Source of the DNA: Candidatus Shapirobacteria bacterium | GTDB taxonomy: Bacteria; Patescibacteriota; Microgenomatia; UBA12405; BS750m-G30 | Length of the DNA: 64,000 nt | Assembly (NCBI GenBank): GCA_043817235.1 | Contig: JBDRHA010000011.1 | Coordinates: 191,769-255,768, forward strand | Direction: 5' to 3' | In this document: one piece after another, positions 3,277-63,704 of the stretch | How positions within the stretch are numbered: the first letter of the stretch is position 1 | Layout: each line of letters starts with the position of its first letter | Made by a program: the position numbers and the translations under genes | The notes under the pieces: model-generated | Database searches by the model: none | The model's input: the letters and a program-made list of their open reading frames with translations, nothing else | Told to the model about the DNA's origin: nothing

Positions 3277-3282
3277 AAAATC

Positions 3283-27772: not shown

Positions 27773-30760
27773 CTACTGTAGTCAGCTCCCCTCAAGAATC
27801 AGCGGTTACTGCGGATAGAGACCGAGCTGTCTTACGACGCTCTGAACCCAACTAATGCGGCGCTTTAATGGGCGAACAGACCAACCCTTGGCCACTTCTT
27901 CATGGCCAGGATGCGCCAAGTCGACATCGAGGTGCCGAACCGGGCCGTCTATGTGGACTATCGGGCCCGACCAGCCTGTTATCCCCGGGGTAATTTTTAT
28001 CCGTTAAGCCCCATGTTTAACCATCCAAGCATGGGGGATCACTAAGACCTGCTTTCGCATCTCCTCGCCTTGACGGCGGGTGGTATCACCTTAAACTTTT
28101 CCAGTTCAAATGAGTGAAAAAATAAAAGGATTAACCAGCTCGACTTGTAAGTCTCGCAGTTAGGCTAGCTTTTGGCTTTGTCCTTACGGCTCGGTTTCCA
28201 TCCGAGCTAAGCTAACCTTTGTACGCTCGCGTTACCTTTTAGCAAGCGGCTGCCCCAGCCAAACTGACCACCAAACACTGTTCCCGTCCGAGTGTGCATC
28301 GGACTCAGGTAAGACGTAAACTTGATAAAGGGTGGTATTCCACTGGTGGTCCGACGTAAAGTCGGACCTCCCACCTATTCTCGACAGTTACCAAATTCTT
28401 GTCAATGTTAAGTTTCAGTAAAACTCCACGGGGTCTTTTTGTCCTGCAGTAACTAACCGGCATCTTCACCGGTATTTCAATTTCGCCGGATAAAGGGTCG
28501 AGACAGTTGCTCGGTCGTGAAGCCTTTCATACTGGTCTGAACTTACCAGACAATGGACTTCGCTACCTTTGGATCCTTAGAGTTAGGACCGTCGTTCACC
28601 GGGGCTTCGGTTTGAGGCAGTCCAAGTAAACTTGGATACCCCGCTCCTTGACCTTCCGGCACCGGACAGGCTTCAGCCCCTATACTTCCCCTTACGGGTT
28701 TGCAGAGACCTGTGTTTTTGCTAAACAGTCGCCGAGCAATCTTTCGCTGCGTCCCGCCCAAAGGCGGGAAAGGCATCTCCCTAAGTTACGCCTAGCTTTT
28801 TTGCCGAGTTCCTTGACCCTCCTTCTTCCGATCGTTTTAGTTTACTCAACTTGTCCACCTGTGTCGGTTTTCGGTACGAATATTATTTTTTCTCCCAACG
28901 AAGCTTTTCTTGGTATCTGAACCCAGCGGGATTTCCCAAAACAAGTTTGGGATTCCGGCAAGTCTCACTTAAAACGAAATGGCGGATTTGCCTACCACTT
29001 CTGGCTCAACTAACCGATGCGGCAATTTCACTCACCACACCCCACCTCTCCTGATACGTCCCTCCCTTGGTTATAACGAAAAAATAACAGGGCTGGAATA
29101 TTAACCAGCTGTCCATCCACTACTCCCGACGTAACGTCGGGACTTATGTTAGGATCGCCTAACCCTCAGACGACAAACGTTGCTGAGGAAACCTTGGACA
29201 TTCAACGGTCCAGTTTCTCACTGGACTTACGCTACTCATGCCGGCATTCTCGCTCCCGCCAACTCCACTCCGATTCACATCGGAACTTCACTGTAAGCGG
29301 GACGCTCCCCTACCAACCTCGCCTCCTGGGCAAGAAAATCCTAATTTCTAACCCTTTGTCATCCTGAGCATAGCCGAAGGATCTTTTACTCCCAAAGATT
29401 CCTCGACTTCGCTCGGAATGACAAGGCACAATATTATTTAGAATTTCCCTGTCCAAGAGACAAGATTCTCCGTTGTCGGTGGCCTGCTTTAGCCTCGGTA
29501 AATTTTCGGCGCAGCCTATCCATATCGACCAGTGAGCTGTTACGCTTTCTTTAAAGGGTGGCTGCCTCTAAGCCAACCTCCTGGCTGTCTAGGATCGACT
29601 ACCTCCTTCCCCACTTAGCAAGACACTTAGAGACCTTAAACGGGAGTCTGGGTTGTTTCCCTTTCGCCCAACCAGCTTAGCCCGGCTGGACTGACTGCCT
29701 GATTAATTTACCTGGTATTCGGAGTTTGGTTGAACACCGGAGATTGCTCCCCAGATGCTCATCCAGTCGCTCTACCCCCAAGCAAAACAATATCAGGCGC
29801 TATACCAATATATATTTCGGGGAGAACCAGCTATTTCCGAGTTCGATAAGCATATTACCTCTAACCACAGGTCATCCAAAGAGTTTGCAGCCTCAACTGG
29901 TGCGGGCCTCCGGTCGACTTTCATCGACCTTCACCCTGCCCATGGTTAGCTCACTCGGTTTCGGGTATTCCGCCAGCCGCTAAACGCCTTATTCAGACTC
30001 GGTTTCCCTACGCCTTCCCCCGCAACTGCGAGGTTAAACTTGCGACTAAGACGAAAACTCGCCGGCTCATTCTTCAATAGGCACGACATCAGTCCGACGT
30101 AACGTCGGACCTCTGTCTGTTTGTTAGCAAATAGTTTCAGGTTCTATTTCACTCCCCTCCCGGGGTTCTTTTCACCTTTCCCTCACGGTAATATACGCTA
30201 TCGGTCAGCAAGAGTATTTAGCCTTTCCGGATGGCCCCGGAAGATTCCCACGAAGTTTTGCGTGTTCCGTGGTACTCAGGTGCTCTGGCTCAAACTTAAT
30301 CAAATTTCACCTACAGGGCTTTCACCTTCTTTGGCAAGCCATTTCCAGGCTTTTTGGCTATTTTTTCAGCTCAAGACTATCAGAGTCCTACAACCCCCCG
30401 ACGTTACGTCGGGGTTTGGGCTACTCCCTTTTCGCTCACCGCTACTAAGGGAATTATGGTTATTTTCTTTTCCTCTGGGTACTAAGATGTTTCAGTTCCC
30501 CAGGTTATCCCCCCGCAAATGCGGGGTTTCCGAAATTAACTTCGGAAGGGTTGCCCCATTCGGAAACCGCCGGATCATAGGTTGCAGACACCTACCCGAC
30601 GAGTATCGCCGTCTGCCGCGTCCTTCTTCGACTCTTACCGCCAAGGCATCCACTATTTGCCTTACTACAAGATTTTTTCTTTAATATCAACAATCTGATT
30701 CTTTAGTCAATTACTTTCTAATAAGTTGTCAAGGTGCAGCCTGCCTCACCGGCAGGTGGG

Positions 30761-32769: not shown

Positions 32770-33740
32770 CCTTTGCCAAAGAAAAACTTAATGGCAATAA
32801 AAAAATAGACAAAACAAAAAAGAAAAAAGAAGATCCGGTTAAGGAAAGAAAAATCATTAGCCTGGTTCTTACTGCTTCTATTTTCCTAAGCGTCTTTTTT
32901 TATTTAACCGCTCATTGGCCCAATCTTCGTCTTGATCTTAGTCTTCCTTCTTTGCCTCGGTCATTGCCCAGAATCATCGCCCCTTCTGCTCCTCTTGAGA
33001 GTAAAATAGACAACATTGTTCTTGGCCGCCTTGGTGAACAGAAAAATAACTGGGCTGTTTGGATAGAAGACTTAAATAGCGGATTTATCTGGTCTTACCA
33101 AGAAAAGGAAATTTTCCCCTCAGATTCTTTGGCAAAACTAGGGGCCGCTGCTACTCTTTACCAGCAGGCAGAAGCAGGGGAAATTAGCTTAAGCAGCAAA
33201 GTGATTTTAACCCAAGAAGACTTTCAGGGCGGAAGTGGTAATTTGAAAGATAGCCCCGTCGGAAGCGAAATCAGTTTAAATGCAGCTGCCATGCTTTGTC
33301 TTTCCCAGTCGGATAATACTTCTTTCAATCTTATAACAAGGTTCTTGAGCGAACAGCTAATTTCCCGCAATATATTTTCCCAAGGAATGATCAACACCTC
33401 CTTGGAAAACAAAACTACCACTGCCGCCGACCTGGCTTTATTTTTTCAAAAGCTTTATCGCAATCAACTGCTTTCTCCTGAATTCAAAGAGGAAATGCTA
33501 AATAATCTAGCAGAAGGCGCTTTTGCTGACTATCTTCCCAAAAACTTGCCTCAGGGAATTAAAACTGCTCATCAAGTAAGCGAGGGCCTTAATAGTTTAT
33601 CTGATGCAGGCATTGTTTTTGTTCCCCAAAAACCAATTCTCCTGATTTTTCTGGCCAAAAATATCCCGCCTGATCAGGCTAAAGTAATCATCGCCGACTT
33701 AAGCAAAGACGTTTATTGGTTTTTAGTTGCACCAAGGTGA
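32751..33740 (+). CDS. class A beta-lactamase-like serine hydrolase with N-terminal TM anchor
   Basis: SxxK (SLAK), SDN and KTA(G) motifs in the correct order and spacing; start taken at MVEKT because the longer ORF overlaps pfkB. Confidence 0.55.
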   Translation: MVEKTLAFAKEKLNGNKKIDKTKKKKEDPVKERKIISLVLTASIFLSVFFYLTAHWPNLRLDLSLPSLPRSLPRIIAPSAPLESKIDNIVLGRLGEQKNNWAVWIEDLNSGFIWSYQEKEIFPSDSLAKLGAAATLYQQAEAGEISLSSKVILTQEDFQGGSGNLKDSPVGSEISLNAAAMLCLSQSDNTSFNLITRFLSEQLISRNIFSQGMINTSLENKTTTAADLALFFQKLYRNQLLSPEFKEEMLNNLAEGAFADYLPKNLPQGIKTAHQVSEGLNSLSDAGIVFVPQKPILLIFLAKNIPPDQAKVIIADLSKDVYWFLVAPR

Positions 33741-35857
33741 TCTTTTTCAGCTAAAAACCAGGAAGGTGAACACTGATTTTTAGGCGCAGTATTTTCTAGA
33801 AAGTATTCTTGGCCAGTTTGTGGACAACCCTCACAAGGCAAGGTTCCGGTAGACCTGCAAATTACTGTTTCAGCCACGTTGCCGGGCTTTTTCCATCCGG
33901 TTTCAGGGTAGGATTCTAACATTAGATCGGTTATTTTCCGCCAGATAGGAGTAGCGCCGGTAATGCCCGAAGCAATTCGGCTCATGGGCCTATTATCATT
34001 ATTGCCCACCCAAACGGCTACCAAAAACTCTGGCGTATAGCCAATAGCCCAATTATCCCGTAGATTATTACTCGTACCGGTTTTAACTGCTACTTTGTGA
34101 TAAGAAATATTAAGCAAAGAGTGGAGACCAAAGCCCTGCGCTCGAGCAGAGCTGTCGGAAAGAATATCATTAAGCAAAAAAGCCACCCCCGGATCTAAAA
34201 CTTCTTTTGCCGACGGCTTTACATCCAAAAAGGGATTTAAATCCACCTTTTCCCCCAAATTAGCCAGCACCGCATAGGCCTGAGCCAAATCAATCATTTT
34301 TATTTCCCCCCCGCCCAAGGTTAAAGAAAGACCAAAGCGGGAGCGCTCCTGCCAAGTAGTAATTCCCATAAGCTCGCCTTGGCTAATCATCCGGTCCACC
34401 CCAAGAGCGGAAAGAACTTTTACCGCCGGCACATTAAAGGACGAAGCTAAAGCCGTACGCAAAGAAACATTGCCATGAAAACGGCCATCATAATTTTGGG
34501 GAGAATAAGGATCTTGATAAGGTTTTTGAAAAGTAATCGGCGTATCGGGAATAATTGTGGCCGGAGTAAATCCATTTTGCAAAGCCAGGGAATAGGTAAT
34601 TATTTTAATAGCCGATCCGGGAGGACGAGGCCTTAAAGTCACATTCACATTGCCATCATGATCAAAATCATAGTAGTCTTTACTCCCGACCATCGCCAAA
34701 ATTTCTCCGGTTTTTGGCTTAATTATCAAAGCCGCTCCATTGCTTACCCCCAAAGGCGCGGCCTTAACAAGCTCCTCCTGAATAATTTTTTCCACTTTTT
34801 TTTGCAAGTTCAGGTCCAAGCTAGTCTTAACTTCTAATCCTCCCTCTTCTACAATCTGCTCGCCCCATTTTTGGGCCAGGAGATCTTTAACATAAAACAC
34901 GAAATGAGGTGCCTCAATAGAATTATTCTGCATATTAAAGCGAAGGGGCTCCTGCGCAGCTCTTTGTTCCTCCTGTTCTGTTAAATAACCGCTTTTTGCC
35001 ATTAGAGACAACACCTGCTTTTGTCTCTCTTTGGCCAAGTCCGGATAAGCAGAAAAAGGAGAAAAGCGGGTAGGCCCGGCTGGCAAACCAGCAAGCAGTG
35101 AAGCTTCAGCCAAATTTACTTCCCGAACCGACTTACCGAAATATTTTTGGGCCGCCTCCTCAATGCCATAAGCCATGCCGCCATAAGGAATCTCGTTAAA
35201 GTACATCTGCAAAATTTCTTCTTTGGAAAAGCGCATTTCCACCAAAACACTTAAAATCACTTCTTTAATTTTCCGCTCCCAGGTCTTTTGCGAACCCAAA
35301 AGAGCATTCTTAACCAACTGCTGAGTAATGGTTGATCCGCCAATTGGCTCTTTATCAGGATTAGTTAAATTATGCTTGATCGCTCTTAAAATCCCTCGCC
35401 AAGAAAGACCTTTGTGCTGCCAATACTCCCGATCTTCAACAGCAATTGTCGCCTCGATCGCTCTCTTTGGTATTTCTTCTAAAGGGATTAAAGTCCGATC
35501 CTGTTCACGGTAAATTTTGTAAAGAAGATTGCCGTTTCGGTCGTAAATCTTAGTAGTTAAAGCTAGAGGACGATTAATTAATTTTTCCGGAGAAGGCAAG
35601 TCTTTTAAAATCGCTAAATAAAAACCATAAAATCCTGTCACCAGAAAAGTAAAAAAGGTAGCCAAGAAAAGCCAGCGAAACCTAAACCTAAAAAGATTAA
35701 TTTTTTTGATCAACAAGATAAGATTAGTAAATTTCTGGAAGGATAAAGATAAAAAATTTTGAACGAAATTAAAAAGCGCAGCTAAAGATAAATAAAAAGG
35801 TCTGCCTAAATAGTAAAAAAATTTAAACAAAAATAGAAAATATTTTGAAAAAAGCAT
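33713..35857 (-). CDS. penicillin-binding protein 1A (bifunctional GT51 glycosyltransferase/transpeptidase)
   Basis: GT51 motifs EDREYWQHKG and GGSTITQQLVKN; transpeptidase SxxK/SxN/KTG region; N-terminal TM. Confidence 0.85.
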   Translation of the reverse strand: MLFSKYFLFLFKFFYYLGRPFYLSLAALFNFVQNFLSLSFQKFTNLILLIKKINLFRFRFRWLFLATFFTFLVTGFYGFYLAILKDLPSPEKLINRPLALTTKIYDRNGNLLYKIYREQDRTLIPLEEIPKRAIEATIAVEDREYWQHKGLSWRGILRAIKHNLTNPDKEPIGGSTITQQLVKNALLGSQKTWERKIKEVILSVLVEMRFSKEEILQMYFNEIPYGGMAYGIEEAAQKYFGKSVREVNLAEASLLAGLPAGPTRFSPFSAYPDLAKERQKQVLSLMAKSGYLTEQEEQRAAQEPLRFNMQNNSIEAPHFVFYVKDLLAQKWGEQIVEEGGLEVKTSLDLNLQKKVEKIIQEELVKAAPLGVSNGAALIIKPKTGEILAMVGSKDYYDFDHDGNVNVTLRPRPPGSAIKIITYSLALQNGFTPATIIPDTPITFQKPYQDPYSPQNYDGRFHGNVSLRTALASSFNVPAVKVLSALGVDRMISQGELMGITTWQERSRFGLSLTLGGGEIKMIDLAQAYAVLANLGEKVDLNPFLDVKPSAKEVLDPGVAFLLNDILSDSSARAQGFGLHSLLNISYHKVAVKTGTSNNLRDNWAIGYTPEFLVAVWVGNNDNRPMSRIASGITGATPIWRKITDLMLESYPETGWKKPGNVAETVICRSTGTLPCEGCPQTGQEYFLENTAPKNQCSPSWFLAEKDHLGATKNQ

Positions 35858-37886: not shown

Positions 37887-40121
37887 TTATTCCCCAACTC
37901 CTGGCGCAAGGAAAGGCTCGCGGTTGCCAGAAACGTAAATATTGGTCGTCGGCCAGGGCTGATCTTGGTTTTCAATATTGGCCGGGCAATCAAAGCAAAA
38001 AATCGTGCCCAAAGGATCACGCACAGCCGAATGGTCCTGCCATTCTAAATTCTCCTTTTCCTCTCCGGGCTGAACCGGCTGGCTGGTATCTTTATCTACG
38101 AGCACCGGCTGGCGCAATGCAACGCTGTGGCCCGGCTCTGTGCCTTTAATAAAATATTCATAGCGAGCTGAACAACCTTCTTCGGGAAGTAGAAATCCCG
38201 TTTGGTTGCAAACTGTTTTGCCCACCACTGTATCTGGGCGAGCCGGCAATCTGGGAGCTTGGTTTTTTAGAACCTCGCTGATAACCGTATTCCAAATAGG
38301 AGAAGCACCAGTAACGCCCGAGGCCACAGCACTCATAGCGGAATTATCGTTGTTCCCTACCCAAACAGTTACGACATAGTCCGGAGTATAGCCTACCGTC
38401 CAATTATCCCGCTTATCATTAGTGGTCCCCGTTTTCACCGCTACTTCCGGATGATCTTCCACTGCTAAAAGAGAGCGAGAACCGAAAGCAGCAGAACGCG
38501 CCCCATTGTCGCTTAAAATATCAGAAATCAAATAAGCTACCTCCGGAGGTAAAACTCTTTTCCCCTGAACAAACTTCTTTTCTTCCAATATCTGACCAGC
38601 CCTGTCCTTAATTTCTAAAATAGAAACCAGATCCTGGCGAATACCGAGGTTAGCCAAAGTACCGAAAGCCGTGGCCATTTCCGTCATTTTCACCTCTCCA
38701 CCGCCTAAAGTAAGCGATAATCCATAATTATCCGGGGCAGAGAAACTTTCAATGCCCATAGCCGAAGCGGTAGCAATGAAACTTTCCAAGCCATTGATAG
38801 CCAGCATCTTTACCGCCGGCACATTAAAAGAATTGCCTAAAGCATAGCGTAATTGAACTACCCCGTGGAAAAGACCATCATAGTTGCGCGGGCAATAAGG
38901 TTTTTGGCCGGGAACTAAAAAACAGGTAGGAACGTCATTAAAAATAGTGGCTGGCGTTACTCTTCCGGTAACCAAACCAGTTGCGTAATTAATGGGCTTA
39001 ATGGCCGATCCCGGCTGGCGCAAAGCGGTAGTCACATTAAATTTTCCATCAATATCCGAAGCAAAATAATCCTTGCTTCCCACCATAGCCAAAACCTCGC
39101 CGCTTTTAGGCTCAGTTACCAAAGCTGCTCCGTTGGAAACATTTTGCCTGCTGAGTTTGGCGACCTCCGAAGCCACTGTTGCTTGGCTAAAATCCTGAAG
39201 ATCCAGATCTAAAGTCGTTCTTACCCGCAAACCTCCCTGGTCCACTACGGCTTGGCCATACTTTTCTACTAATTGCTCTTTAACATAAAAAACAAAATGA
39301 GGCGCCTCAATTTTTATTGCCGGTGAGGCGAAATTTAAATCTTCATCCTTGGCTTCTTGAGCCTCTTCTTTGTTGATATAGCCGCTTTCCGCCATTTGGT
39401 CTAAAACCAGGTGCTGGCGACTTTTGGCCACATCCGGATGAATAAAAGGAGAATAGCGCGTCGGCGAAGCAGGCAACCCGGCTAGCATCGCGGCTTGGGC
39501 CAAGCTTAAATCGGCCACGCTCTTGTCAAAGTAAGTGTTAGCTGCTGCCTGAGCCCCCCAGGATGTCCCCCCGTACGGGGTTTGATTGAAATACATTTCT
39601 AAAATCTGATCTTTGGTGTAAATTACTTCTGCCGCTAAGGTTAAAACTGCTTCCTTTATTTTCCTCTCCCAAGTGCGCTCGGGAGTTAGTAAAGCATTTT
39701 TCACCAACTGCTGGGTAATGGTTGAGCCGCCCTGAAGCTTTTTTCTGAAAATTATATTATAAACAGCTCGGGAAATACCCCTAAGGTCAAAGCCAAAATG
39801 CCGGTAAAAATTCCGATCTTCAATTGCCAAAGTTGCCCAAACTAGAGATTCGGGCACCTCATCAAGTTTAACCGGCACCCGATTTTTTTCGCTATAAATC
39901 TCATAAAGCAGTTTGCCATTGCGATCATAAATTAAAGTAGAGGCCGGGTAAGGAAAAGTGCTAAGTTTTTTGGGCGAAGGCAAAGAAACAATACTAAAGC
40001 CAATAACAACCAGCACGAAAACAAGAAATCCAAAAAATACTATCTTTTTAATTTTTCTGGGAATTTTTTTTCCCCACTTTTTAAAAAAGAAAGACTGCTT
40101 TTTCTTTTCTCGCGGACTCAT
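37887..40121 (-). CDS. penicillin-binding protein 1A, second paralog
   Basis: GT51 motifs EDRNFYRHFG and GGSTITQQLVKN; transpeptidase domain; ~45% identity by eye to 33713-35857 in conserved blocks. Confidence 0.85.
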   Translation of the reverse strand: MSPREKKKQSFFFKKWGKKIPRKIKKIVFFGFLVFVLVVIGFSIVSLPSPKKLSTFPYPASTLIYDRNGKLLYEIYSEKNRVPVKLDEVPESLVWATLAIEDRNFYRHFGFDLRGISRAVYNIIFRKKLQGGSTITQQLVKNALLTPERTWERKIKEAVLTLAAEVIYTKDQILEMYFNQTPYGGTSWGAQAAANTYFDKSVADLSLAQAAMLAGLPASPTRYSPFIHPDVAKSRQHLVLDQMAESGYINKEEAQEAKDEDLNFASPAIKIEAPHFVFYVKEQLVEKYGQAVVDQGGLRVRTTLDLDLQDFSQATVASEVAKLSRQNVSNGAALVTEPKSGEVLAMVGSKDYFASDIDGKFNVTTALRQPGSAIKPINYATGLVTGRVTPATIFNDVPTCFLVPGQKPYCPRNYDGLFHGVVQLRYALGNSFNVPAVKMLAINGLESFIATASAMGIESFSAPDNYGLSLTLGGGEVKMTEMATAFGTLANLGIRQDLVSILEIKDRAGQILEEKKFVQGKRVLPPEVAYLISDILSDNGARSAAFGSRSLLAVEDHPEVAVKTGTTNDKRDNWTVGYTPDYVVTVWVGNNDNSAMSAVASGVTGASPIWNTVISEVLKNQAPRLPARPDTVVGKTVCNQTGFLLPEEGCSARYEYFIKGTEPGHSVALRQPVLVDKDTSQPVQPGEEKENLEWQDHSAVRDPLGTIFCFDCPANIENQDQPWPTTNIYVSGNREPFLAPGVGE

Positions 40122-40135: not shown

Positions 40136-41977
40136 TTAAGACTGATTTGAAGAAGCGGCCTCTTGTTCCTTTTTTCTTTCTAAAAGCTCTCGGGGGTCGG
40201 AAGTAATCAGTTTATGCTCCTGGGGCGAAGCAATTACTTTAATAGCCACATGATTTTGGCCGGCAAAGAAAATTCCCTCCCCTATATTTGCCGCCAGTAA
40301 ATACTGCCTTTCTCCCTGAGAAAGGTAAAAAAGATCTCCTACTTGGTCAATAGCTGCCGCATGTTGTTTTAGTAAAATTTGAATAGATGAATTCTTAACA
40401 ATTGCCCCGCCATATTTGGAATTAATAAAGTCGTCCACGTCTTGAGTAATCGTGGTTAAGCCTAAATAATACTTTCGCGCCCTTTTGGCAATACCGTAAA
40501 GAAAAAGAGCTGAGTCCGGATAGCGCATCAAATACCAAGCCTCATCAATTACTAAAACTCTTTTTTTCATCTCTCGCCGGATTTTATTCCAAATAAAATC
40601 CAAAATGATATGCATGGCAATCGGCCGCAAGGCTTCTTCTAGGTCTCTAGTGCCAAAAACGACCAGTTTGTTTTGAATGCTAATATTTGTTTGGGTATTA
40701 AAAAGGCCGGCAAAAGCACCCTTAATAAATTTTTCTAGTCTTGCGGCCAAGGAAGCGGCCAAGTCTTCCTCCATGCCAATAAGTACTTTATAAAGATCTT
40801 CAATTAAGGGCATCTCTTTGTCTTTCTGAGTATCCGGATCCAAAGTTATCCCTTGGTTTTTATATGTAGCTACTAAAGCGCGATCCAAAATTGCTTCTTC
40901 TTGAGGAGACATTTTGCCCATGATAATCCTAAAGAGAGCGTATAAAGAAAGAATTTTCCGTGTCAGCTCATTTTCTCCTTCTTGGGTTTGCACTAGCTCC
41001 AAATCAAAAGGATTAATTTTGGCCTGAGAACTAAAGCCAAAGGTAATATATTGGCCGCCGAGCGCCTGACATAGGGTCTCATACTCATTTTCCGGGTCAA
41101 TAACCATCACCTCTGTATCAAACATCAAAGAGCGCAAAGTTTCTAGTTTAACCAAATAGCTTTTGCCAGCACCGGATTTAGCAAAAATTATACTATTAAA
41201 ATTCTCCATAGAAAAACGGTCAAAAACCACCAAAGAACCATTATGCTGATTTAAACCGAAAAGCACTCCTTTATCATCTGAAAGCTCGGAAGAAACAAAG
41301 GGGAAAGTAGTAGACAAAGTTGAGGTAGGCATATTGCGAGTGACATTGAGCTCGTCTTTACACAAAGGCAAAATAGTTTTAAAGCCCTCCTCCATTTCCA
41401 AAATTGCGGCTTTAGGGATAATCATTAAAGCTCCCAGGGAAGCTTGAAGCTCTTTGCTCATTCGCTCCAGCTGGGCCAAAGAATCAGCCGAAACAGTGAT
41501 ATAGAGCCCAAATTGGAAAAACTTTTCTACCCCCTTGGCCAGCTTTTCCTGAATAGCTAAAGCGTCTTCTAATTTTGCCTGAGTAGTCGGGTCAACTACT
41601 TTTCCCCGTTGAATGTCGGTGGAAATTTCCGCCTCCATCCGGGCAATGGTTTTGCGCATCTCGTCTAGGACTCCCCGGCCCTCTACCGGATAAATATACA
41701 TCGCAATATCCAGCTCCTGGTCAAAATTAACCAAGGGCGAGAGCCAATTAGGCGAAACATAACGAGGGTAATTAACTACATAAAAAGTGCGATAATATCG
41801 GCTATTAATCCGCAAAGTAGTCCAATCTACTTCAACAGCCGAAGGAGCAATAACATCTTTAATGCTCACCAGTCCCGGGGACATCGGTGTAGCTTCCGCT
41901 TGCTTTTCGGGTGCTTCCTTTTGCTGGCTGATTTTTTTTATTTGCTCGCTAGCCTTTTTCCAAAAATCAAGCTTCAT
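40136..41977 (-). CDS. VirB4/TraC-family type IV secretion ATPase (AAA-like, DUF87)
   Basis: Walker A FAKSGAGKS, Walker B VLVIDEAW; N-terminal region YYRTFYVVNYPRYV resembles the CagE/TrbE/VirB4 N-domain; 613 aa. Confidence 0.7.
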   Translation of the reverse strand: MKLDFWKKASEQIKKISQQKEAPEKQAEATPMSPGLVSIKDVIAPSAVEVDWTTLRINSRYYRTFYVVNYPRYVSPNWLSPLVNFDQELDIAMYIYPVEGRGVLDEMRKTIARMEAEISTDIQRGKVVDPTTQAKLEDALAIQEKLAKGVEKFFQFGLYITVSADSLAQLERMSKELQASLGALMIIPKAAILEMEEGFKTILPLCKDELNVTRNMPTSTLSTTFPFVSSELSDDKGVLFGLNQHNGSLVVFDRFSMENFNSIIFAKSGAGKSYLVKLETLRSLMFDTEVMVIDPENEYETLCQALGGQYITFGFSSQAKINPFDLELVQTQEGENELTRKILSLYALFRIIMGKMSPQEEAILDRALVATYKNQGITLDPDTQKDKEMPLIEDLYKVLIGMEEDLAASLAARLEKFIKGAFAGLFNTQTNISIQNKLVVFGTRDLEEALRPIAMHIILDFIWNKIRREMKKRVLVIDEAWYLMRYPDSALFLYGIAKRARKYYLGLTTITQDVDDFINSKYGGAIVKNSSIQILLKQHAAAIDQVGDLFYLSQGERQYLLAANIGEGIFFAGQNHVAIKVIASPQEHKLITSDPRELLERKKEQEAASSNQS

Positions 41978-42716
41978 TTTCCTCCTTTTCCTCTCCTTCT
42001 TTTTTCTTTTTATCTCTCATTAAAACTAGAGGAACTTCGCCTTCCTTTAAGGGGAGCTCCGAGGTATTAATTTTTTCCTGATTATAAATACTGTAGAAAA
42101 AACCTACTAACTGAGCAGTAGTCAACTGTCGAGCGCGCAGCCCCAAGCTTCCTAAAGCCCGAACAACATGCTCTTTTTTGGGCTCCAAATTTGCTTTGGC
42201 TCGTTCAATAATCGCTCTTTTTTCCAAAGGCAAAGCCTGCACTTCTTCCTTGGGCTTAAAAAAAGAAAAAAGAGGAATACTGTTTTTGGCCGCGGCCAGC
42301 CCCAGCTCCAGACTGGAAAAAGGAACAGCAACATAAAAAGACTTGGTCAAAACATTATTTTTCTCTACCATCTGAGAAACAAACTGGCGGTAATGGGCAA
42401 TTTGTTTTCTCGCTAAAGAATCGGTCTTTTTTTGCTCCCAAGAAAGGAGATAATCAAGGTAAGAACTAACATCTTTAAGTGCCGAGTGAATGAAAATTTG
42501 CAAAGGAAAAGACAAGGAATTGAGCAAGGAAGCATAAGCATAAATCATTGCCTCCTGCTCTCGCTCAGAAAGGAGGTCAAAATTAACAGAGGACACTTCA
42601 AAAACATAAGCACAAGAGCCATCTTTAAGAATGACCATATTTTGAGCAATATCCTCAATCGGCAAATATTCTTGGGTAGTTCCTTTAAGAGCTTTTTTCT
42701 TTAAATCCATGGGCAA
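41967..42716 (-). CDS. T4SS-associated protein resembling a VirB4 N-terminal domain (possible split VirB4 or accessory subunit)
   Basis: segment MVILKDGSCAYVFEVSSVNFDLLSEREQEAMIYAYASLLNSL matches the CagE/TrbE/VirB4 N-domain pattern; overlaps the ATPase start by 11 nt. Confidence 0.4.
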   Translation of the reverse strand: MPMDLKKKALKGTTQEYLPIEDIAQNMVILKDGSCAYVFEVSSVNFDLLSEREQEAMIYAYASLLNSLSFPLQIFIHSALKDVSSYLDYLLSWEQKKTDSLARKQIAHYRQFVSQMVEKNNVLTKSFYVAVPFSSLELGLAAAKNSIPLFSFFKPKEEVQALPLEKRAIIERAKANLEPKKEHVVRALGSLGLRARQLTTAQLVGFFYSIYNQEKINTSELPLKEGEVPLVLMRDKKKKEGEEKEENEA

Positions 42717-42725
42717 GTTTTATTT

Positions 42726-43580
42726 TTATGCCAACGCCGTCTTTTTCGCTTGAATCTGTAATGGGGGAATAATTTTCCCTTTGGTCTCAATTTTAATTAT
42801 AGCAAAAGAAAAAGGCTCTTTTTCCACCAAAACTAAATATTGACCATTTGGCAAGGGGGTAGCTGTTTGAAACTGTCCTAAAGAATTAGAGCGCATTGCT
42901 CTAATTGGATTGCCCTCTAAGTCTTGAATCTCCACAATTGCTCCCTCCAAAGTCCTGCCTTCCAGATCCATTATCAAACCATTAATTATATTGGGAACCG
43001 TGGGAGTAGCCGGAAGAGATATTTTTAAATACTCCGGAGAGCTGGACTCCAGTTTTTGCTTTGGTGTATTTTTCCTAATCATTTGAATGATTTCGTCCGA
43101 AGAAGGGCTCCCCTCTTTTTCTGAAGGTGGCAAAATTGTTTCTTGTTTTTCTTTTTCCTGAACGACTGGGGCGGGCGGAATAACCCTTTTTTCCGGTACT
43201 TTTGGCGTCTTAGCCGGATTTTCTACCGGAGTAGAAAGAACCTGGCTAAAAACCGGCACAGGGGTCGGCTTGTAAAAAGAATATTTGGGGAAAAAGGGCT
43301 TTTTCCAAATAAATACAGTGGGAGAATAAGCCGCCCGAAAAAAAGAAACCAGCCAGTATTCCAAGGGCCTGTCGTTAAAAGGCAGAAAGGCTGTCCCTAT
43401 CCCCAACAAAAGAATAGCCAAGCTCAAAGGAAAACGCAAAACAGAAGTCAGGCCAGAATGAAAAAGCAAATAGGCAAAGACAACCCCCGCTGCTAGTTTT
43501 AAAAATTGGTTTAAAGTCATGCTTCCTACTAAACGAAATTCGTAAGAGGATATTTCTTGTGGTATTGGGTACTGGTTCAT
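42726..43580 (-). CDS. VirB3-like membrane protein with Pro/Thr-rich linker and C-terminal carboxypeptidase-regulatory-like beta-sandwich domain
   Basis: two N-terminal TM helices immediately upstream of VirB4 (position typical of VirB3/PrgI); C-terminal LEGAIVEIQDLEGNPI...GQYLVLVEK resembles a CarbopepD_reg fold. Confidence 0.45.
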   Translation of the reverse strand: MNQYPIPQEISSYEFRLVGSMTLNQFLKLAAGVVFAYLLFHSGLTSVLRFPLSLAILLLGIGTAFLPFNDRPLEYWLVSFFRAAYSPTVFIWKKPFFPKYSFYKPTPVPVFSQVLSTPVENPAKTPKVPEKRVIPPAPVVQEKEKQETILPPSEKEGSPSSDEIIQMIRKNTPKQKLESSSPEYLKISLPATPTVPNIINGLIMDLEGRTLEGAIVEIQDLEGNPIRAMRSNSLGQFQTATPLPNGQYLVLVEKEPFSFAIIKIETKGKIIPPLQIQAKKTALA

Positions 43581-43645: not shown

Positions 43646-44546
43646 ATGAGTAATTCCTTGCTGATTATTGATGCTCATGCGGTTCTGCATCGGGCCTTTC
43701 ATGCCCTGCCTCCTCTAACAAATAAACAAAGAGAGCCTGTGGGGGCAGTTTTTGGTTTTTTTTCGGTTTTACTTTCCACCTTAAAAAAAATTAAGCCCCG
43801 AAAGCTGGCTATTTGCTTTGACTCTCCCGGGCCAACTTTCCGCCACAAGCTTTTTATCGGCTACCAATCTAAAAGACCGATCACCGAAGACCGCCTGGTC
43901 AGCCAAATCAAAAAAACAAGAAAGTTAGTGGCTGAATCTGGTCTGGCCTATTTTATCAAAAGCGGCTTTGAAGCAGACGACCTTGTCGCTTCTTTGGCTA
44001 AAAAAAACCAAGCCTCAAAAATTTATATCCTAACTGGCGACAAAGATCTAATGCAATTAGTAGATAAAAAAGTTAACTTGCTGCTTATGGGCCGGCAGAT
44101 GAATAAACTTACGAAAGTTAATTCCCAGGAGGTAAAAAAAAATATTAGGAATCAAGCCTTCGCAGGTAGTTGATTTTAAAGCCTTAAGCGGTGATCCTTC
44201 AGATAACTATCCGGGAGTTTATGGAGTTGGCCCAAAAACTGCTTCCAGCTTGTTGGAAAAATTTCAAAATTTTGACAATGTTTATCAAAACCTAAACAAA
44301 CTACCGGATGCTCTTAAAATGAAACTAAAAAAAGGCAAAGAAGCGGGCGAGCTTTCTTATAGGTTAGCTAAAATTGATAATCAAACGCCAATCAAACTAA
44401 AAGGCAAGCAATTAGCTTGGAAAAATGCTAAAATAAAAGAGTTAAAAGAGGTTTTGGCAAAGGAAAGCTTTCCCTCTTTAGTCAAAAGAATAGAAAAAGA
44501 CTTTGGCTTAATAAAGAAAGAAAACTGCCAGCAGAAACTACTGTGA
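43646..44546 (+). pseudogene. 5'-3' exonuclease (Pol I N-terminal/FEN-like), +1 frameshift next to an A9 tract near 44128-44142
   Basis: frame A encodes LLIIDAHAVLHRAFHAL...DDLVASLAKK...ILTGDKDLMQLV; after GTAAAAAAAAATATTAGG the H3TH continuation IKPSQVVDFKALSGDPSDNYPGVYGVGPKTA... is in another frame; removing one A restores a ~300-aa protein. Confidence 0.7.
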
Positions 44547-45463: not shown

Positions 45464-46699
45464 TCACTCCTCGCTGGCAATTTTGCCTAACTGGATATAG
45501 CCCCATGTTCTTCGCGGATGATCTTTATTGAATTTCTTTACCCAAGCTAAAAAATCATGACTGTCGCCATAAACCAATACCCTAAGATTGCCTTCAGCTT
45601 CCGAATCAGTGACTCGTCTGATTGCTTCAATTTCCCGTCGCTCAAATACATAATTTCTTTTATTTTTATTAAAAGCAGACACAGTCTCATTAAATTGCCT
45701 AATTAAATCTTTGTTTGCGGGATCGGAAGCTAAATTTCTTTTTGCGTCTAACATATCCTGAAGCAGTTTTACCGCTTGCTCGTTTAGTTCTGTTGACTCT
45801 GCAGGCTTGACATTAATTTTACCATCCATGTGTAGCCTAGTTGTTGCCAATAATGAAGAACGCACATCCTGAAAGCCGTACCGAGATAAATATTGACCAA
45901 TATTTTTTAAGGCTTCTCCTATATAATTCCTAACATGTATTATAGGCTCAACAATTTGTTCATTAGCTCCTGATATTTTATTCAAAGGAGGAATTTCTAA
46001 ATCTGGATTATTATTTATAAAATTTTCGGCCCGAGCAAGATAGTCTTCGAATGCATAGTAAACAGCCCCCCTCAAATAACTATATGGTTCCTCTGCCAGG
46101 CCTGTAATGTCTTTGGAGACTGCAGCTGAGGAAAACAGTTGCAGCTCAATTCTTTTTAAATATTCTAACCGATGATATATAGAAGCAATATCCAAATTTT
46201 CTGTTTCCAAGACCTGCTTAAGCTCCCTTAATAAATCTAAATCAGTAATCGAACTATCAGATACGCCTTCGGAAAAGACTGTTTTTATTCCTTTATTTCT
46301 GATAATTTCTGCAATTATATTTTCAATAATATTTTGGGAGCTCATGAATTCTGCATTGCCACTTTTATGCACATCTTGAATAAATGGATTATAATGTGTT
46401 TGGCCAATAACCAAGATATAATCACTGCCCCCATTCGGATTATGTTCAAAATTTTCTATATTAAAGCCGCTTTTTTGTAGTTCTTTTTCATCTAAGCCGG
46501 TAATCTCGCTAAATGATCTTGTGTTTACAGCTTCAGCTGTGGAGGCACCCACAGGTCTAGCCAGCTGAGGAATTAGAGCTAAAACAGCAAAATCTCTTGC
46601 TATATGAAGAAACTGCCTTCTAGATATTTTTGGCAATTCCCGAGAGGCTCCATTTGCAGTATTAGCTGAAGAAGTGCTTTCGTTACCAATCTCAGACAT
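45464..46699 (-). CDS. secreted hypothetical protein with twin-arginine (Tat) signal peptide
   Basis: ISRRQFLHIARDFAVLALIP matches the S/T-R-R-x-F-L Tat consensus followed by a hydrophobic h-region; 411 aa; no recognisable catalytic motif. Confidence 0.45.
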   Translation of the reverse strand: MSEIGNESTSSANTANGASRELPKISRRQFLHIARDFAVLALIPQLARPVGASTAEAVNTRSFSEITGLDEKELQKSGFNIENFEHNPNGGSDYILVIGQTHYNPFIQDVHKSGNAEFMSSQNIIENIIAEIIRNKGIKTVFSEGVSDSSITDLDLLRELKQVLETENLDIASIYHRLEYLKRIELQLFSSAAVSKDITGLAEEPYSYLRGAVYYAFEDYLARAENFINNNPDLEIPPLNKISGANEQIVEPIIHVRNYIGEALKNIGQYLSRYGFQDVRSSLLATTRLHMDGKINVKPAESTELNEQAVKLLQDMLDAKRNLASDPANKDLIRQFNETVSAFNKNKRNYVFERREIEAIRRVTDSEAEGNLRVLVYGDSHDFLAWVKKFNKDHPRRTWGYIQLGKIASEE

Positions 46700-49026: not shown

Positions 49027-49053
49027 TAGATTATTTTATCATGGCAAAAAAAG

Positions 49054-49127
49054 TGGACGCGCCAGGACTCGAACCTGGGACCTCTTGCTCATAAGGCAAG
49101 CGCTCTCACCGACTGAGCTACGCGTCC
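49054..49127 (-). tRNA. tRNA with anticodon TAT (UAU; tRNA-Ile reading AUA), no encoded CCA
   Basis: manual fold: acceptor GGACGCG/CGCGTCC, D-arm GCTC..GAGC, anticodon stem CTTGC/GCAAG with loop CTTATGA, T-arm CCAGG TTCGAGT CCTGG; 74 nt. Confidence 0.7.
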
Positions 49128-49314: not shown

Positions 49315-50782
<1,468 letters not shown>

Positions 50783-51599: not shown

Positions 51600-51902
51600 T
51601 TAGCCGGTAAGAATACTAATCCCAAAAATCACTTCGATAGCCCGGATAATAAACCAAGATAAAAATACTACTACAAAGCCCACAATTCCCATCATTACTC
51701 TGCTCCGGCCGCTGGCTACTTTCTCCGGGTTGCCCCCGGAAACCATCATTTCAAACCCGCCAAAAATAATCATTACTAACATAATTATTCCCGCCAGAGG
51801 AATGATATATTTCCACAATTCGGTAAAAACACCCGCAATATCAGTAAATTTAGCAGATACTGTAGAGCTTGGAATATCAAAATTAGCGGCATGAACTTTC
51901 AT
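51600..51902 (-). CDS. VirB2/TrbC-like two-helix pilin-family protein (paralog 1)
   Basis: 100 aa; hydrophobic helix - loop SGGNPEKVASGRSR - hydrophobic helix ending IRAIEVIFG; same architecture as seven other ORFs in the window. Confidence 0.55.
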   Translation of the reverse strand: MKVHAANFDIPSSTVSAKFTDIAGVFTELWKYIIPLAGIIMLVMIIFGGFEMMVSGGNPEKVASGRSRVMMGIVGFVVVFLSWFIIRAIEVIFGISILTG

Positions 51903-51911
51903 GTTATTAAT

Positions 51912-52670
51912 TTAATAATTTAATCCCGGCAAGCTTAATAAATCTACTCCAATGAATCTTAACAGAAAAAGAGAAAAAATCATAAAAAGCAGGCCGGAAA
52001 TTGCGCTTGTTACATAAGCTTGGCCTTGTTTTACTTTCTCCGGGTTGCCGCCGGAGGTAATAATCTGAAAAGCGCCAAAAATCATCAAAAGCAAAGCAAT
52101 TCCGCCGGCAATCCCCATGAAATTCCCAAAAAACCAATTAACAAACTCACTGGTATTATTAATCGGAATACACCCCAAAGCAGTATCAATACCGGTCTCA
52201 CCATTACAAAACCCAGGAAAAAAAACCGAAGTTCCTGGCGTTGGGGTAGGGGCAATAGTGAACATGCTTGAAATTTCGCAGGTATGGTCGTGAGTATCAC
52301 AAACCAGACCAGAAGAACATGTTCCACCTGGGCAGCAATTGTCGCCTACCGACATACCGCAAGCTGGCGTTGGGGATCCGTAATGACAGCCCACGCAAGT
52401 TGTAGGGGTTGGCGCAGGAGTTGAGACAGAAGTTGGCGATGGAGTTGGAGTTATTACTAAGGGAGGAGTAGGTGTATTAGCCGGAGGTTGACAATAGTGT
52501 TCGAAACAAGTAAATGCTGGCGCACCGCAACAAGGCACATTACCATCTCCACAATCATGATAATTATCTATACAATCTGCAGCGAAAGATTTCAGGGGAG
52601 AAATAGAAGCTACAAATAAAAAAAGCGCAAAGAAAAATATCTTTCTAATCACAATTTTTAAATTACTCAC
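51912..52670 (-). CDS. pilin-family protein with N-terminal signal peptide, two Cys-rich modules and Pro/Thr linker fused to a C-terminal two-helix pilin domain (paralog 2)
   Basis: signal peptide; CIDNYHDCGDGNVPCCGAPAFTC... and CVGCHYGSPTPACGMSVGDNCCPGGTC... modules separated by TPTPP repeats; C-terminal GAFQIITSGGNPEKVKQGQAYV...LLRFIGV pilin-like domain. Confidence 0.55.
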   Translation of the reverse strand: MSNLKIVIRKIFFFALFLFVASISPLKSFAADCIDNYHDCGDGNVPCCGAPAFTCFEHYCQPPANTPTPPLVITPTPSPTSVSTPAPTPTTCVGCHYGSPTPACGMSVGDNCCPGGTCSSGLVCDTHDHTCEISSMFTIAPTPTPGTSVFFPGFCNGETGIDTALGCIPINNTSEFVNWFFGNFMGIAGGIALLLMIFGAFQIITSGGNPEKVKQGQAYVTSAISGLLFMIFSLFLLRFIGVDLLSLPGLNY

Positions 52671-53547
52671 TCTTTTTAGATTTTTCTTTTAAGTATTTAA
52701 CTATTAATTGGGCAATGTCTAAATTGGCACGCTTTTCCATCACATAAAATTCCGGGGCTTGGTTCACTTCAATTACTACCGGCTTGTTATTTCTTTTATC
52801 CATCACCAAGTCAACACCGGCAATTTCCACACCCAAAATTTTAGCTGCCTTTTCGGCTTCGGCAGCCACATCCTCAGGGATTTTTTCTAAAATTTGGGAG
52901 CTGCCCGCCGAGCGATTCAAAATCAATTGTTTTTCTTTAGCCTGGCGTTTAAAACCGGTAATAACTTTATAACCGACTAAAAACAAGCGATAATCGCCAT
53001 CATTGGGAATATAATCTTGAATTAAAAAGTTAATACTTGTCCGACCTTGCAAAACTCTATTTAACGCTAAATCGTCCTCGATTAAAAAGGTTCCTTGGCC
53101 ATGCCGGCCGGCCGTAGATTTTATAACCACCGGCTTCGGCTCAGCTTCCACCACTTTTTTAAGATCTTCCCGGTCAGAAACAAAACTGCTTTTCGGATAA
53201 CTCACTCCAGCCCGCAGCAACATTATTGCCTCCGAAGATTTTCTTTTTCGAAAAGCGCCGCCTAATTTGTTCAAATAGTCATCAACTATCGGAATTTTAT
53301 GCTCTTTGGCATATTCCAAAAGCAAAGGCAAGTGCTCATTTTTATCTCCCACTGAGCGAAAATAAAATAAAGAAAAATCCTTTAAAGGCTGGTCTTGAAA
53401 ATAGATCTCCCATTCTTTTTGGATTCCCTCAATTTTAAGAGCTGAATAATGAATAGGAACAAGATCAATTTCTTCTTTTTTAGCCGCCTTAACTAACTTC
53501 TCACCGGAATCAGTCCAGGCCGTATAAAAAAAGGCAATTTTTTTCAT
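52663..53547 (-). CDS. RimK-family ATP-grasp ligase (alpha-L-glutamate ligase-like)
   Basis: 294 aa; ATP-grasp core VVIKSTAGRHGQGTFLI...DYRLFLVG...GVDLVMDKRNNKPVVIEVNQAPEF. Confidence 0.7.
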   Translation of the reverse strand: MKKIAFFYTAWTDSGEKLVKAAKKEEIDLVPIHYSALKIEGIQKEWEIYFQDQPLKDFSLFYFRSVGDKNEHLPLLLEYAKEHKIPIVDDYLNKLGGAFRKRKSSEAIMLLRAGVSYPKSSFVSDREDLKKVVEAEPKPVVIKSTAGRHGQGTFLIEDDLALNRVLQGRTSINFLIQDYIPNDGDYRLFLVGYKVITGFKRQAKEKQLILNRSAGSSQILEKIPEDVAAEAEKAAKILGVEIAGVDLVMDKRNNKPVVIEVNQAPEFYVMEKRANLDIAQLIVKYLKEKSKKSE

Positions 53548-53585
53548 TTGTTGATTATTATTTATTTCATTCTAACACAAAGCCT

Positions 53586-54914: not shown

Positions 54915-54919
54915 GCTTT

Positions 54920-55807
54920 TTACCTTTCTAAAACCGCCTTAAATCGTTTGTGCTCCAGCAAACGCCAGCCCGTGTATTTGCCAATAAGCAAATTCAAAAC
55001 CAAAACAGCCAAAAAAGAAAGTTCCGGATTAAGTAAAACCAGCTCTTGAAGTTTTTCCCAAGCCATTAAAGAAGCACCTAAAATGGAAATTACTAAGGTG
55101 CCAATAGTTAAGCTCATCGCGCTTCTTTTAGATTTTCCCAGCTGAACGCGGGTAAATTCTTCGGAAAGCAAAATAAGAAAGAGGATCGGGAAAATAGAAA
55201 TTTGAGTTAAATCAAGAAGGCTCAAAGAAGGAGAAACTGCCAAAAAGCCAAAAGTAATTAAAGAAATAATCATTAAAGTAATCGCTCTTCTTGGCCAGTA
55301 AAAGATTTTTACTTTTTTCAAGCTCCGGCCGGCCAAAACCGTAGAAATTAAAATTACCGCAAAAAGAAAAAGGCCGCCGACAATTCCGGTGGCCAAAAAA
55401 GTAATGGCAATCATCGCCGGCATAAAAATGCCAAAACCAGGAACGCCAATGCCGTACTGAACTGCACCCACCAGAGCCCCTACCAAAGGAAGAAGTAAAA
55501 TCAAAATAATAGTGTTAGCCGGCACACCGCGGCTAACGGCAAAACGAACACTGTATTTTAAAAAGTTATCTAAAGAAAGCGGCCCTAGATTTTGCTCGTC
55601 TAAAAGCGCTTCCAGCTTGCCTTTGGTTTTTATATTCTTAGGCTCAGTAATATTTTCTTTAACAGCTACTGTAGTAGGTATTGCCGAAGCAGTTGATTCC
55701 TGTCCTTGGGGCTCAAGACTAGGGTTAGGAACAATAGTGACCGCGCCAGCCGGCAAAGCGAAAAGAAAAAACAAAGCAAGAAATAGCACTAGTTTTTTAG
55801 TAAGCAT
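54920..55807 (-). CDS. 7TM-type membrane protein with N-terminal signal peptide and extracellular domain (7TM-receptor partner of ATP-grasp systems)
   Basis: signal peptide, ~90-aa extracytoplasmic region, then about seven hydrophobic helices; first gene of the three-gene operon with the two ATP-grasp enzymes. Confidence 0.5.
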   Translation of the reverse strand: MLTKKLVLFLALFFLFALPAGAVTIVPNPSLEPQGQESTASAIPTTVAVKENITEPKNIKTKGKLEALLDEQNLGPLSLDNFLKYSVRFAVSRGVPANTIILILLLPLVGALVGAVQYGIGVPGFGIFMPAMIAITFLATGIVGGLFLFAVILISTVLAGRSLKKVKIFYWPRRAITLMIISLITFGFLAVSPSLSLLDLTQISIFPILFLILLSEEFTRVQLGKSKRSAMSLTIGTLVISILGASLMAWEKLQELVLLNPELSFLAVLVLNLLIGKYTGWRLLEHKRFKAVLER

Positions 55808-62114: not shown

Positions 62115-62153
62115 CTTGCCAATAATTGGAACTAAATTCCCTAATCTAATCGC

Positions 62154-62507: not shown

Positions 62508-62592
62508 TTTATTCTTTCACCTCCTCTCGATTTATAATTTATTTACTTTTTAATAATAACGAGATAATTCTTGCTTTGCAATTAGCAATTTA

Positions 62593-62943: not shown

Positions 62944-62945
62944 GT

Positions 62946-63311: not shown

Positions 63312-63313
63312 TT

Positions 63314-63700: not shown

Positions 63701-63704
63701 TCTT

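Follow-up and report, generated by a model that had tools for sequence, protein, structure and literature searches.

In this study, a 64-kb window (the whole stretch of DNA analysed) from the chromosome of a Candidatus Shapirobacteria metagenome-assembled genome (MAG; Patescibacteria, Microgenomatia) was examined. The focus is on three consecutive minus-strand genes for a PrgI/VirB3-like protein, a TrsD-like protein and a VirB4 ATPase (Table 1). These genes very probably encode the cytoplasmic-membrane energising sub-assembly of a Patescibacteria-type type IV secretion system (T4SS), a chromosomal, relaxase-less derivative of the MPF-FATA conjugation systems of monoderms, proposed to build a VirB2-like pilus. 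The 249-aa and 284-aa products have 100% identity to proteins encoded on a 336-kb contig of a Candidatus Shapirobacteria MAG at NCBI. Profile coordinates and homologues indicate that VirB4 is encoded here as two polypeptides by a conserved gene split (fission), which is neither a duplication nor a frameshift. The preliminary description had read the genes as VirB3-like, VirB4-N-domain-like and VirB4 ATPase; profiles, folds and conserved homologues agree with this core reading, and identical coordinates were obtained for the three minus-strand open reading frames (ORFs) from the ORF listing. That all three genes are real is confirmed by the many conserved homologues of each, far above chance.

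The 613-aa ATPase scored 376.9 bits with the NCBIfam equivalog model NF045971 (conju_CD1110, VirB4-like conjugal transfer ATPase; cut-off 325), the match spanning profile positions 181-734 of 752. In Pfam, P-loop_TraG was matched with 103 bits against a threshold of 25.8 (E 1.7e-29) and AAA_10 was also matched, while the HerA-type DUF87 gave only 32 bits; no FtsK_SpoIIIE match was found in the Pfam and NCBIfam scans. By hidden Markov model (HMM) profile scores the ATPase thus groups with VirB4, and not with FtsK or HerA as would have refuted the preliminary description. The Mycoplasma integrative-element VirB4 (Mbov_0397 family), TraC and TIGR00929 models were matched as well. Residues 230-592 match PDB 4AG5 (E 4.9e-52); among solved structures, the Thermoanaerobacter VirB4 C-terminal domain (PDB 4AG5/4AG6) comes closest to the ATPase domain, and since these structures cover the C-terminal domain only, they are uninformative on the split N-domain. 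The complete N-terminal domain is not in the ATPase: its matches start at profile position 181 of 752 (CD1110) and 238 of 792 (TIGR00929), with a weak CagE_TrbE_VirB match on residues 58-204. The 613-aa protein can be described from these profiles as a VirB4 ATPase without the first ~200 residues of canonical VirB4. Four related Patescibacterial (Microgenomatia-type) loci, L001, L003, L007 (Shapirobacteria GCA_016783425.1, the closest relative) and L008, were used for comparison, and the ATPase is 71% identical to the L001 homologue and 55% to that of L003. VirB4 homologues of Patescibacteria are thus 55-71% identical to the window protein, while the best non-Patescibacterial plasmid matches do not exceed 38.6%; the best non-Patescibacterial matches overall come from large replicons of Actinomycetota and Bacillota (36-39% identity). 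The L007 VirB4 gene (2550-6497) encodes 1315 aa including an intein with a LAGLIDADG homing endonuclease (Pfam Intein_splicing, LAGLIDADG_3); the window VirB4 is intein-free.

In the survey of Quinonero-Coronel et al. 2025, 2417 of 3035 Patescibacterial genomes had VirB4, which formed a clade nested in MPF-FATA (PMC12102498). TrsD was the most abundant T4SS component, PrgI-type VirB3 and VirB2-like pilin arrays were present (the arrays being especially abundant in Microgenomatia), and relaxases were nearly absent, occurring in 103 of the 3035 genomes with 15 relaxase genes near virB4 (PMC12102498). The window resembles these systems, and that of Southlakia epibionticum ML1, in its chromosomal location and housekeeping surroundings, its MPF-FATA-affine VirB4, the adjacent TrsD and PrgI/VirB3 genes, the divergent VirB2-like pilin arrays and the lack of any relaxase found in the 64 kb. 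Judged by these components, all of them recognised from sequence, the locus is an instance of the published Patescibacteria-type T4SS. It differs in that PrgI has a ~190-residue extension ending in a transthyretin-like domain and that a class A penicillin-binding protein (PBP) gene follows VirB4; unlike the loci of L003 and L008, it is not beside dnaA/dnaN. PrgI lies directly upstream of TrsD-VirB4 in the window and in the four related loci, whereas 22.6% of Microgenomatia VirB3 homologues were near virB4 in the survey (PMC12102498). Under-detection of long PrgI fusions in the survey is suggested, because the PrgI scores of these proteins are weak.

The preliminary description had called the locus a compact core module. 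This does not hold, as further genes of the system, for pilins in arrays and for a VirB6 candidate, are located at 51.6-52.7 kb and 57.9-64 kb, 8-22 kb away. The 100-aa pilin of the first group also matches the NCBIfam Mbov_0395 pilin-like model (E 1e-6), and tblastn ties both pilins at 51600-52670 to the arrays beside VirB4 in L001 and L003. Searches with the L001 pilins likewise matched the second array at 61764-63998, including the truncated gene at 63714-63998. The 728-aa protein encoded after this array gave no Pfam or NCBIfam match, and it is 46% identical to the 744-aa product of the gene after the L001 pilin array. The 550-aa polytopic protein had no match in PDB, Pfam or NCBIfam; it is homologous (E 3e-27) to a 568-aa L003 protein encoded between the pilin array and PrgI-TrsD-VirB4, and this L003 protein shows a weak link to a 779-aa polytopic protein of Pontibacillus (E 7e-4 in a tiny database).

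In the 252-aa pilin paralogue (51912-52670, minus strand), a signal-peptide-like start and a ~170-residue Cys- and Pro/Thr-rich extension precede the pilin domain; the other window pilins are 100-128 aa. Between the two pilin loci (52663-55807, minus strand) are genes for a RimK-like ATP-grasp protein, an ATPgrasp_ST protein with a Zn_protease domain and a 7TM_transglut membrane protein.

In the mechanism that we propose, the PrgI hairpin would anchor the TrsD-like piece at the membrane, as the R388 VirB3-VirB4 structure suggests. The TrsD-like piece would dock on the remaining VirB4 N-domain and restore a normal VirB3-VirB4 protomer. Using ATP, the VirB4 oligomer would then assemble the channel, extract the VirB2-like pilins, whose genes are 8-22 kb away, and polymerise them, with the 550-aa polytopic protein serving as a VirB6-like platform. 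By analogy the system probably mediates host-cell contact or exchange rather than conjugation, because T4SS genes of S. epibionticum (TrsD, PrgI, VirB6 and pilin genes) are described as essential for epibiotic growth (Wang et al. 2023, as cited in PMC12102498 and PMC12857230). According to speculation in a FEMS review, a pilus made by this system would act as a conduit to the host (PMC12857230).

A different function for the same anatomy, in which the machine mainly imports host DNA, RNA or other macromolecules in the manner of Ced or ComB, is a real but lesser possibility, and we consider it unlikely on balance. No coupling protein was found nearby, Patescibacteria are without nucleotide synthesis, uptake via the pilus has been speculated upon in the same review (PMC12857230), and a 2026 preprint ties VirB4 to host RNA acquisition. 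NCBIfam also links the ATPase weakly to CedB, an archaeal importer of DNA (E 1.4e-10), but the 40 bits of this match against a cut-off of 700 reflect shared VirB4 ancestry only. Deletion of comEC in S. epibionticum ends competence and leaves viability unaffected, so that the essential nature of the T4SS is not accounted for by DNA taken up in natural transformation. The content of the window is silent on the direction of transport.

Several points weigh against the assignment as a whole. In the PrgI-like protein, Pfam PrgI (PF12666, residues 5-87) scores 25.4 bits, just below the gathering threshold of 27 (E 2e-5), and CarboxypepD_reg (PF13620, residues 199-257) scores 23.9 bits against 32.3 (E 5e-5). 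The TrsD-like ORF reaches 35.2 bits with NF041427 (TrsD/TraD), for which the cut-off is 200. The 550-aa protein is a VirB6 candidate by genomic context and hydrophobicity, and the cytoplasmic location predicted below for the beta-sandwich of the PrgI-like protein rests on the positive-inside rule and family topology. The roles in pilus assembly and host interaction are carried over by analogy from another class, Saccharimonadia, and no functional data from Microgenomatia were found in the literature searched.

The TrsD-like ORF is 249 aa long with a TTG start and 247 aa from the ATG at 42710, which is the likely start. It matches four VirB4 profiles over their N-terminal ~120 positions, besides TrsD/TraD in NCBIfam. 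Its Pfam scan gave only a sub-threshold TraC_F_IV match; a precomputed PF26593 (TraC-like) match is present on P0001, which is 100% identical to the window protein, and on all 120 homologues listed. The ORF and the ATPase take up successive parts of the same models: positions 2-122 and 181-734 of CD1110, 8-117 and 238-723 of TIGR00929, and 99-232 and 283-893 of the Mycoplasma VirB4 model. On an 831-aa VirB4 of a Bacillus mycoides plasmid, a profile of 62 TrsD-like homologues aligns to residues 19-202 (hhalign probability 96.6, E 7e-10) and the window ATPase to about residues 243-826. A natural fusion was also found, exactly one among the best 150 representatives. In this 787-aa protein, P0254, residues 1-213 correspond to TrsD-like residues 3-229 and residues 213-774 to VirB4 residues 43-605, and the disordered tails that both window proteins bear at the junction are absent. 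The TrsD-like model also matches R388 TrwK in fold. The similarity to the VirB4 N-terminal domain claimed in the preliminary description is thus upheld by sequence profile and by fold, and the alignment to VirB4 N-termini, by which a split was to be told from an accessory subunit, gave a split. A fission of VirB4 is indicated because the profile coordinates are colinear and non-overlapping, the stand-alone form is conserved and P0254 joins the two pieces.

That the 249-aa protein is instead a duplicated, accessory or regulatory VirB4 N-domain acting on a complete VirB4 appears very unlikely. The ATPase does retain part of the N-domain in its weak CagE_TrbE_VirB match, and the long low-complexity tails on TrsD-like proteins of other lineages suggest extra roles. 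However, a duplicated domain does not accord with coordinates that are complementary, colinear and without overlap in three VirB4 models and in one real VirB4, nor with the end-to-end fusion. Moreover, the ATPase has only a ~45-residue disordered stretch in place of the ~200 folded residues of canonical VirB4. Duplication was rejected on the complementary coordinates.

Among the best 150 TrsD/TraC-like representatives (found among P0225-P0373, e.g. P0311, P0309 and P0235), 102 are at least 300 aa long. Of 40 inspected C-terminally, all but the fusion P0254 carry Pro/Gln/Thr/Ser/Ala-rich low-complexity tails of up to ~500 residues; the window TrsD-like tail has just ~35 residues, Lys/Glu.

The split had been called unusual, which it is not. 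In Patescibacteria no T4SS feature is commoner than TrsD beside VirB4 (PMC12102498), and the arrangement is also found in pGO1-type systems and on a Bacillota megaplasmid. Like the window, the TrsC-TrsD-TrsE genes of the pGO1/pSK41-type MPF-FATA systems include a TrsD family protein, a remote homologue of the VirB4 N-terminus, beside a shortened VirB4 (PMC12102498). Those systems differ in serving plasmid conjugation with a relaxase and a type IV coupling protein (T4CP) and in being without VirB2 pilins (PMC12102498), and the window TrsD match of 35 bits is far from their model's 200. Another counterpart is located on the megaplasmid of Pontibacillus sp. ALD_SL1 (L006, NZ_CP062975.1, 351-361 kb), with the same TrsD-like/VirB4 split in the same order. 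Two pilin-like genes and genes for the 779-aa polytopic protein, a 116-aa PrgI-like protein, a 274-aa TrsD-like protein and a 621-aa CD1110-family VirB4 are colinear there. Its TrsD-like protein aligns to that of the window with an hhalign probability of 99.8, its VirB4 shares 36% identity with the window protein, and its TrsD and VirB4 genes again overlap by 11 nt. This module differs in its short PrgI without a beta-sandwich, in a large peptidoglycan endopeptidase gene after VirB4 and in its host, a Bacillota with the module on a 0.9 Mb replicon. The TraC-TraD-TraE genes of pIP501 are likewise MPF-FATA conjugation genes of the pGO1/pSK41 type.

In Pontibacillus and on a Bacillus mycoides plasmid (L005), pilin-like genes (Mbov_0395 family or 'pilin') that are homologous to the window VirB2-like pilins occur beside VirB3-(TrsD)-VirB4. 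Pilin-like genes in Bacillota with MPF-FATA-type relatives of the locus are an uneasy fit with the published lack of VirB2 in MPF-FATA. This distribution fits inheritance of the whole set, including pilins and split, and not pilins co-opted later.

The structural comparison was with R388 TrwM/VirB3-TrwK/VirB4 (PDB 7O41, 7O43, 8RTB), where TrwK matches the TrsD-like model and VirB3 has the two-transmembrane-plus-helix layout of the PrgI N-domain. R388 differs as a diderm MPF-T system with a single ~820-aa VirB4 chain and a short VirB3, and sequence identity is only 10-16%.

Could the genes belong to a conjugative or integrative element (ICE), as its remnant or its core? Their nearest characterised families are conjugation ATPases (CD1110, Mycoplasma ICE Mbov_0397, TraC), and 3514 of the best 5000 plasmid records matched are typed conjugative. 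Nevertheless, no relaxase, T4CP, integrase or recombinase was found in Pfam scans of ~45 ORFs of the window, in line with the scarcity of relaxases in the survey cited above, and the location is that of resident chromosomal genes. The module sits between the 23S rRNA (27773-30671, minus strand) and 16S rRNA (49315-50780, plus strand) genes. The other genes of the window are housekeeping genes (tRNA synthetase, EF-P, S1, aldolase, PBPs, transketolase, UppS), the flanks are syntenic with those of relatives (5'-3' exonuclease, transketolase), and GC content is uniform, the locus matching its surroundings. We regard an ICE remnant as highly improbable and rejected it, as mobility genes were not found and the flanks are syntenic housekeeping genes. 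The view of the preliminary description, that with no relaxase, coupling protein or integrase nearby this is a chromosomal secretion or appendage system rather than a conjugative element, is thereby strengthened.

The 23S and 16S rRNA genes are not linked; they stand on opposite strands with ~18.6 kb between them. A tRNA-Ile gene with anticodon UAU (49053-49127, minus strand) lies immediately upstream of the 16S rRNA gene and diverges from it. In most bacteria AUA is decoded by a tRNA with a lysidine-modified CAU anticodon, and a UAU tRNA-Ile is uncommon.

Translational coupling had been claimed for all three genes. It is plausible at the TrsD-like/ATPase junction, where the genes overlap by 11 nt (41967-41977) and a Shine-Dalgarno sequence of the ATPase gene lies within the 3' end of the TrsD-like gene. 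At the PrgI/TrsD-like junction the claim did not stand: there is a spacer of 9-15 nt, with zero overlap and no obvious Shine-Dalgarno sequence. The order PrgI, TraC-like, VirB4 recurs in L001, L003, L007 and L008 with overlaps of 4-14 nt. A single full-length virB4 broken at 41967-41977 by an assembly or sequencing frameshift, or a recent pseudogene, is hardly credible. The different frames of the overlapping ORFs, the A/G-rich stretch and an apparent homopolymer frameshift in a neighbouring gene of the same MAG speak for it, but homologues keep the stand-alone form (217-293 aa in the 120 listed of 929 found), all related loci that were examined and the Bacillota megaplasmid have the split, a strong AAGGAGG stands just ahead of the ATPase ATG, and both proteins carry the junction tails that P0254 lacks. 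With the split conserved, the frameshift or pseudogene reading was rejected. Programmed frameshifting was rejected too, since overlaps of 4, 11, 11 and 14 nt give differing frame offsets among relatives, which fit neither it nor an assembly frameshift. A whole-library profile search with the TrsD-like family gave 3184 cluster representatives at E <= 1e-3.

The neighbouring gene with the apparent frameshift is that of the 5'-3' exonuclease (43646-44546, plus strand), present as two ORFs in different frames broken at a run of nine A (44133-44141). The intact 307-aa L001 homologue aligns to both pieces. The break may be a homopolymer assembly error or a genuine frameshift.

The 284-aa PrgI-like protein has 103 homologues of 196-400 aa, nearly all of 267-400 aa, and its PrgI-sandwich architecture is common to all 68 that were aligned. 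Many homologues carry a precomputed PF12666 match or pass the PrgI and CarboxypepD_reg models, and two have the NCBI name 'PrgI family protein', one being 65% identical. The gene is directly upstream of the TraC-like and VirB4 genes in L001, L003, L007 and L008, and an HMM search of all six-frame window ORFs found no second copy of the PrgI N-domain, of the sandwich or of the TrsD-like protein. The AlphaFold2 model has a mean pLDDT of 80.7. It shows the VirB3/PrgI layout of a transmembrane (TM) hairpin and a following helix; owing to the extension, the protein is not small. The two sub-threshold Pfam calls are backed by homologues, by this model and by Foldseek. Among homologues the linker varies from 77 to 207 aa and is unconserved in sequence (P 11%, K 11%, E 9%). 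The sandwich gave Foldseek matches in PDB to CnaB2, a transglutaminase-family fragment, the transthyretin-like domains of carboxypeptidases D/N/M and HIU hydrolase (E ~1e-5, probability 1.00). Its conserved motif is NII.G.V.D..G...EGAIVEIQD..GNP.RA.RTN.LGQFQTATPLPNG, and a homologue search with the sandwich alone returned one 91-aa fragment only.

The sandwich had been thought extracellular. A cytoplasmic location is more likely than an extracellular one, because the hydropathy scan shows two hydrophobic segments only, Lys and Arg residues follow the positive-inside rule (over the 68 homologues, a mean of 2.65 precedes TM1, 0.79 falls within the 6-residue loop and 4.29 follows TM2), and both termini are cytoplasmic in the VirB3 family (PMC12857230). 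The fold itself does not reveal the location, as transthyretin-like folds occur in both extracellular and cytoplasmic proteins. The Bacillota counterpart has just 116 aa, and the extension is therefore read as a lineage-specific addition. It is absent from the main text of the Patescibacteria T4SS survey (PMC12102498), and a full-text literature search pairing PrgI with 'carboxypeptidase regulatory' returned no papers; the PrgI-sandwich fusion, conserved in Microgenomatia, appears to be undescribed within the literature searched. A speculative idea, which we hold to be rather doubtful, is that a cytoplasmic transthyretin-like domain on a flexible tether beside a split VirB4 constitutes a new T4SS part, for example a receptor for substrate or partner in place of the missing coupling protein, or a regulator of TrsD-VirB4 assembly. 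If true, the tethered sandwich would be a component without counterpart in any described T4SS, and it would help explain the under-detection of VirB3 homologues beside virB4 in Microgenomatia.

The class A PBP gene after VirB4 is possibly co-transcribed with it, as no convincing terminator was found between the two genes. A promoter and terminator scan of 36.5-44 kb gave counts near the shuffled expectation and defined no operon boundary. A PBP gene also follows VirB4 in L007 and is absent from this position in L001, L003 and L008. A second class A PBP paralogue (33713-35857, minus strand) lies 2 kb from the first, and the two window PBPs have ~48-50% identity to each other's L001 orthologues. 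In other relatives the slot after virB4 is taken by a peptidoglycan hydrolase gene, Amidase_3 in L003 and the endopeptidase in Pontibacillus. Two further ORFs are without a Pfam match, and NCBIfam gives them at best one far-sub-threshold match: one of 411 aa (45464-46699, minus strand) with an RRQFL twin-arginine-like N-terminus, and one of 642 aa (55931-57859, plus strand) adjoining the VirB6-candidate gene.

Table 1. Features of the T4SS locus and of linked genes in the 64-kb window
Feature	Position	Strand	Basis
PrgI/VirB3-like membrane anchor with C-terminal extension, 284 aa	42726-43580	-	Pfam PrgI and CarboxypepD_reg; homologues
PrgI domain: conserved N-terminus, TM hairpin 23-40 and 46-65, helix 73-85	43311-43580	-	AlphaFold2, pLDDT 89-97 over 21-80
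Disordered Pro/Lys/Glu-rich linker, residues ~91-185	43026-43310	-	AlphaFold2, pLDDT 53-75
Transthyretin-like/CarboxypepD_reg beta-sandwich, residues 186-284	42729-43025	-	AlphaFold2, pLDDT 90-97, eight strands
TrsD/'TraC-like' protein, putative detached N-terminal ~200 residues of VirB4	41967-42716	-	VirB4 and TrsD/TraD profiles
Shine-Dalgarno AAGGAGG of ATPase gene, within 3' end of TrsD-like gene	41981-41987	-	3 nt before ATG 41977; read from sequence
VirB4 ATPase without first N-terminal subdomain, 613 aa	40136-41977	-	NCBIfam conju_CD1110; Pfam; PDB 4AG5
Walker A AKSGAGKS, residues 266-273	41159-41182	-	Regular expression on translation
Walker B VLVIDE, residues 474-479	40541-40558	-	Regular expression on translation
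Class A PBP	37887-40121	-	Pfam Transgly and Transpeptidase; start 14 nt past VirB4 stop codon
Two VirB2-like T4SS pilin genes, 100 aa and 252 aa	51600-52670	-	Pfam T4SS_pilin, E 7e-12 and 6e-5
550-aa polytopic membrane protein, VirB6 candidate	57868-59520	-	~8-10 hydrophobic segments; context
728-aa secreted protein, directly downstream of pilin array	59559-61745	-	One N-terminal hydrophobic segment
Array of five complete VirB2-like pilin genes and a sixth cut at window end	61764-63998	-	Pfam T4SS_pilin/TrbC on all five, E 3e-9 to 1e-3

To the published picture of the Patescibacterial T4SS this locus adds little, as VirB4, TrsD, PrgI, pilins and the absence of relaxases were already published in 2023-2025. 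The additions are three. An explicit case can be made that TrsD and the short VirB4 arose by fission of one VirB4, from complementary coordinates, a rare fusion and the TrwK fold match. A Bacillota megaplasmid carries the same colinear parts including pilin-like genes, which bears on the origin of the Patescibacterial system and of its pilins. Lastly, a PrgI-beta-sandwich fusion is conserved in Microgenomatia; it is apparently the sole undescribed lineage-specific feature of the locus, and its predicted cytoplasmic location is unexpected and testable. The Patescibacterial T4SS is of current interest as a system that may build a pilus in a monoderm.

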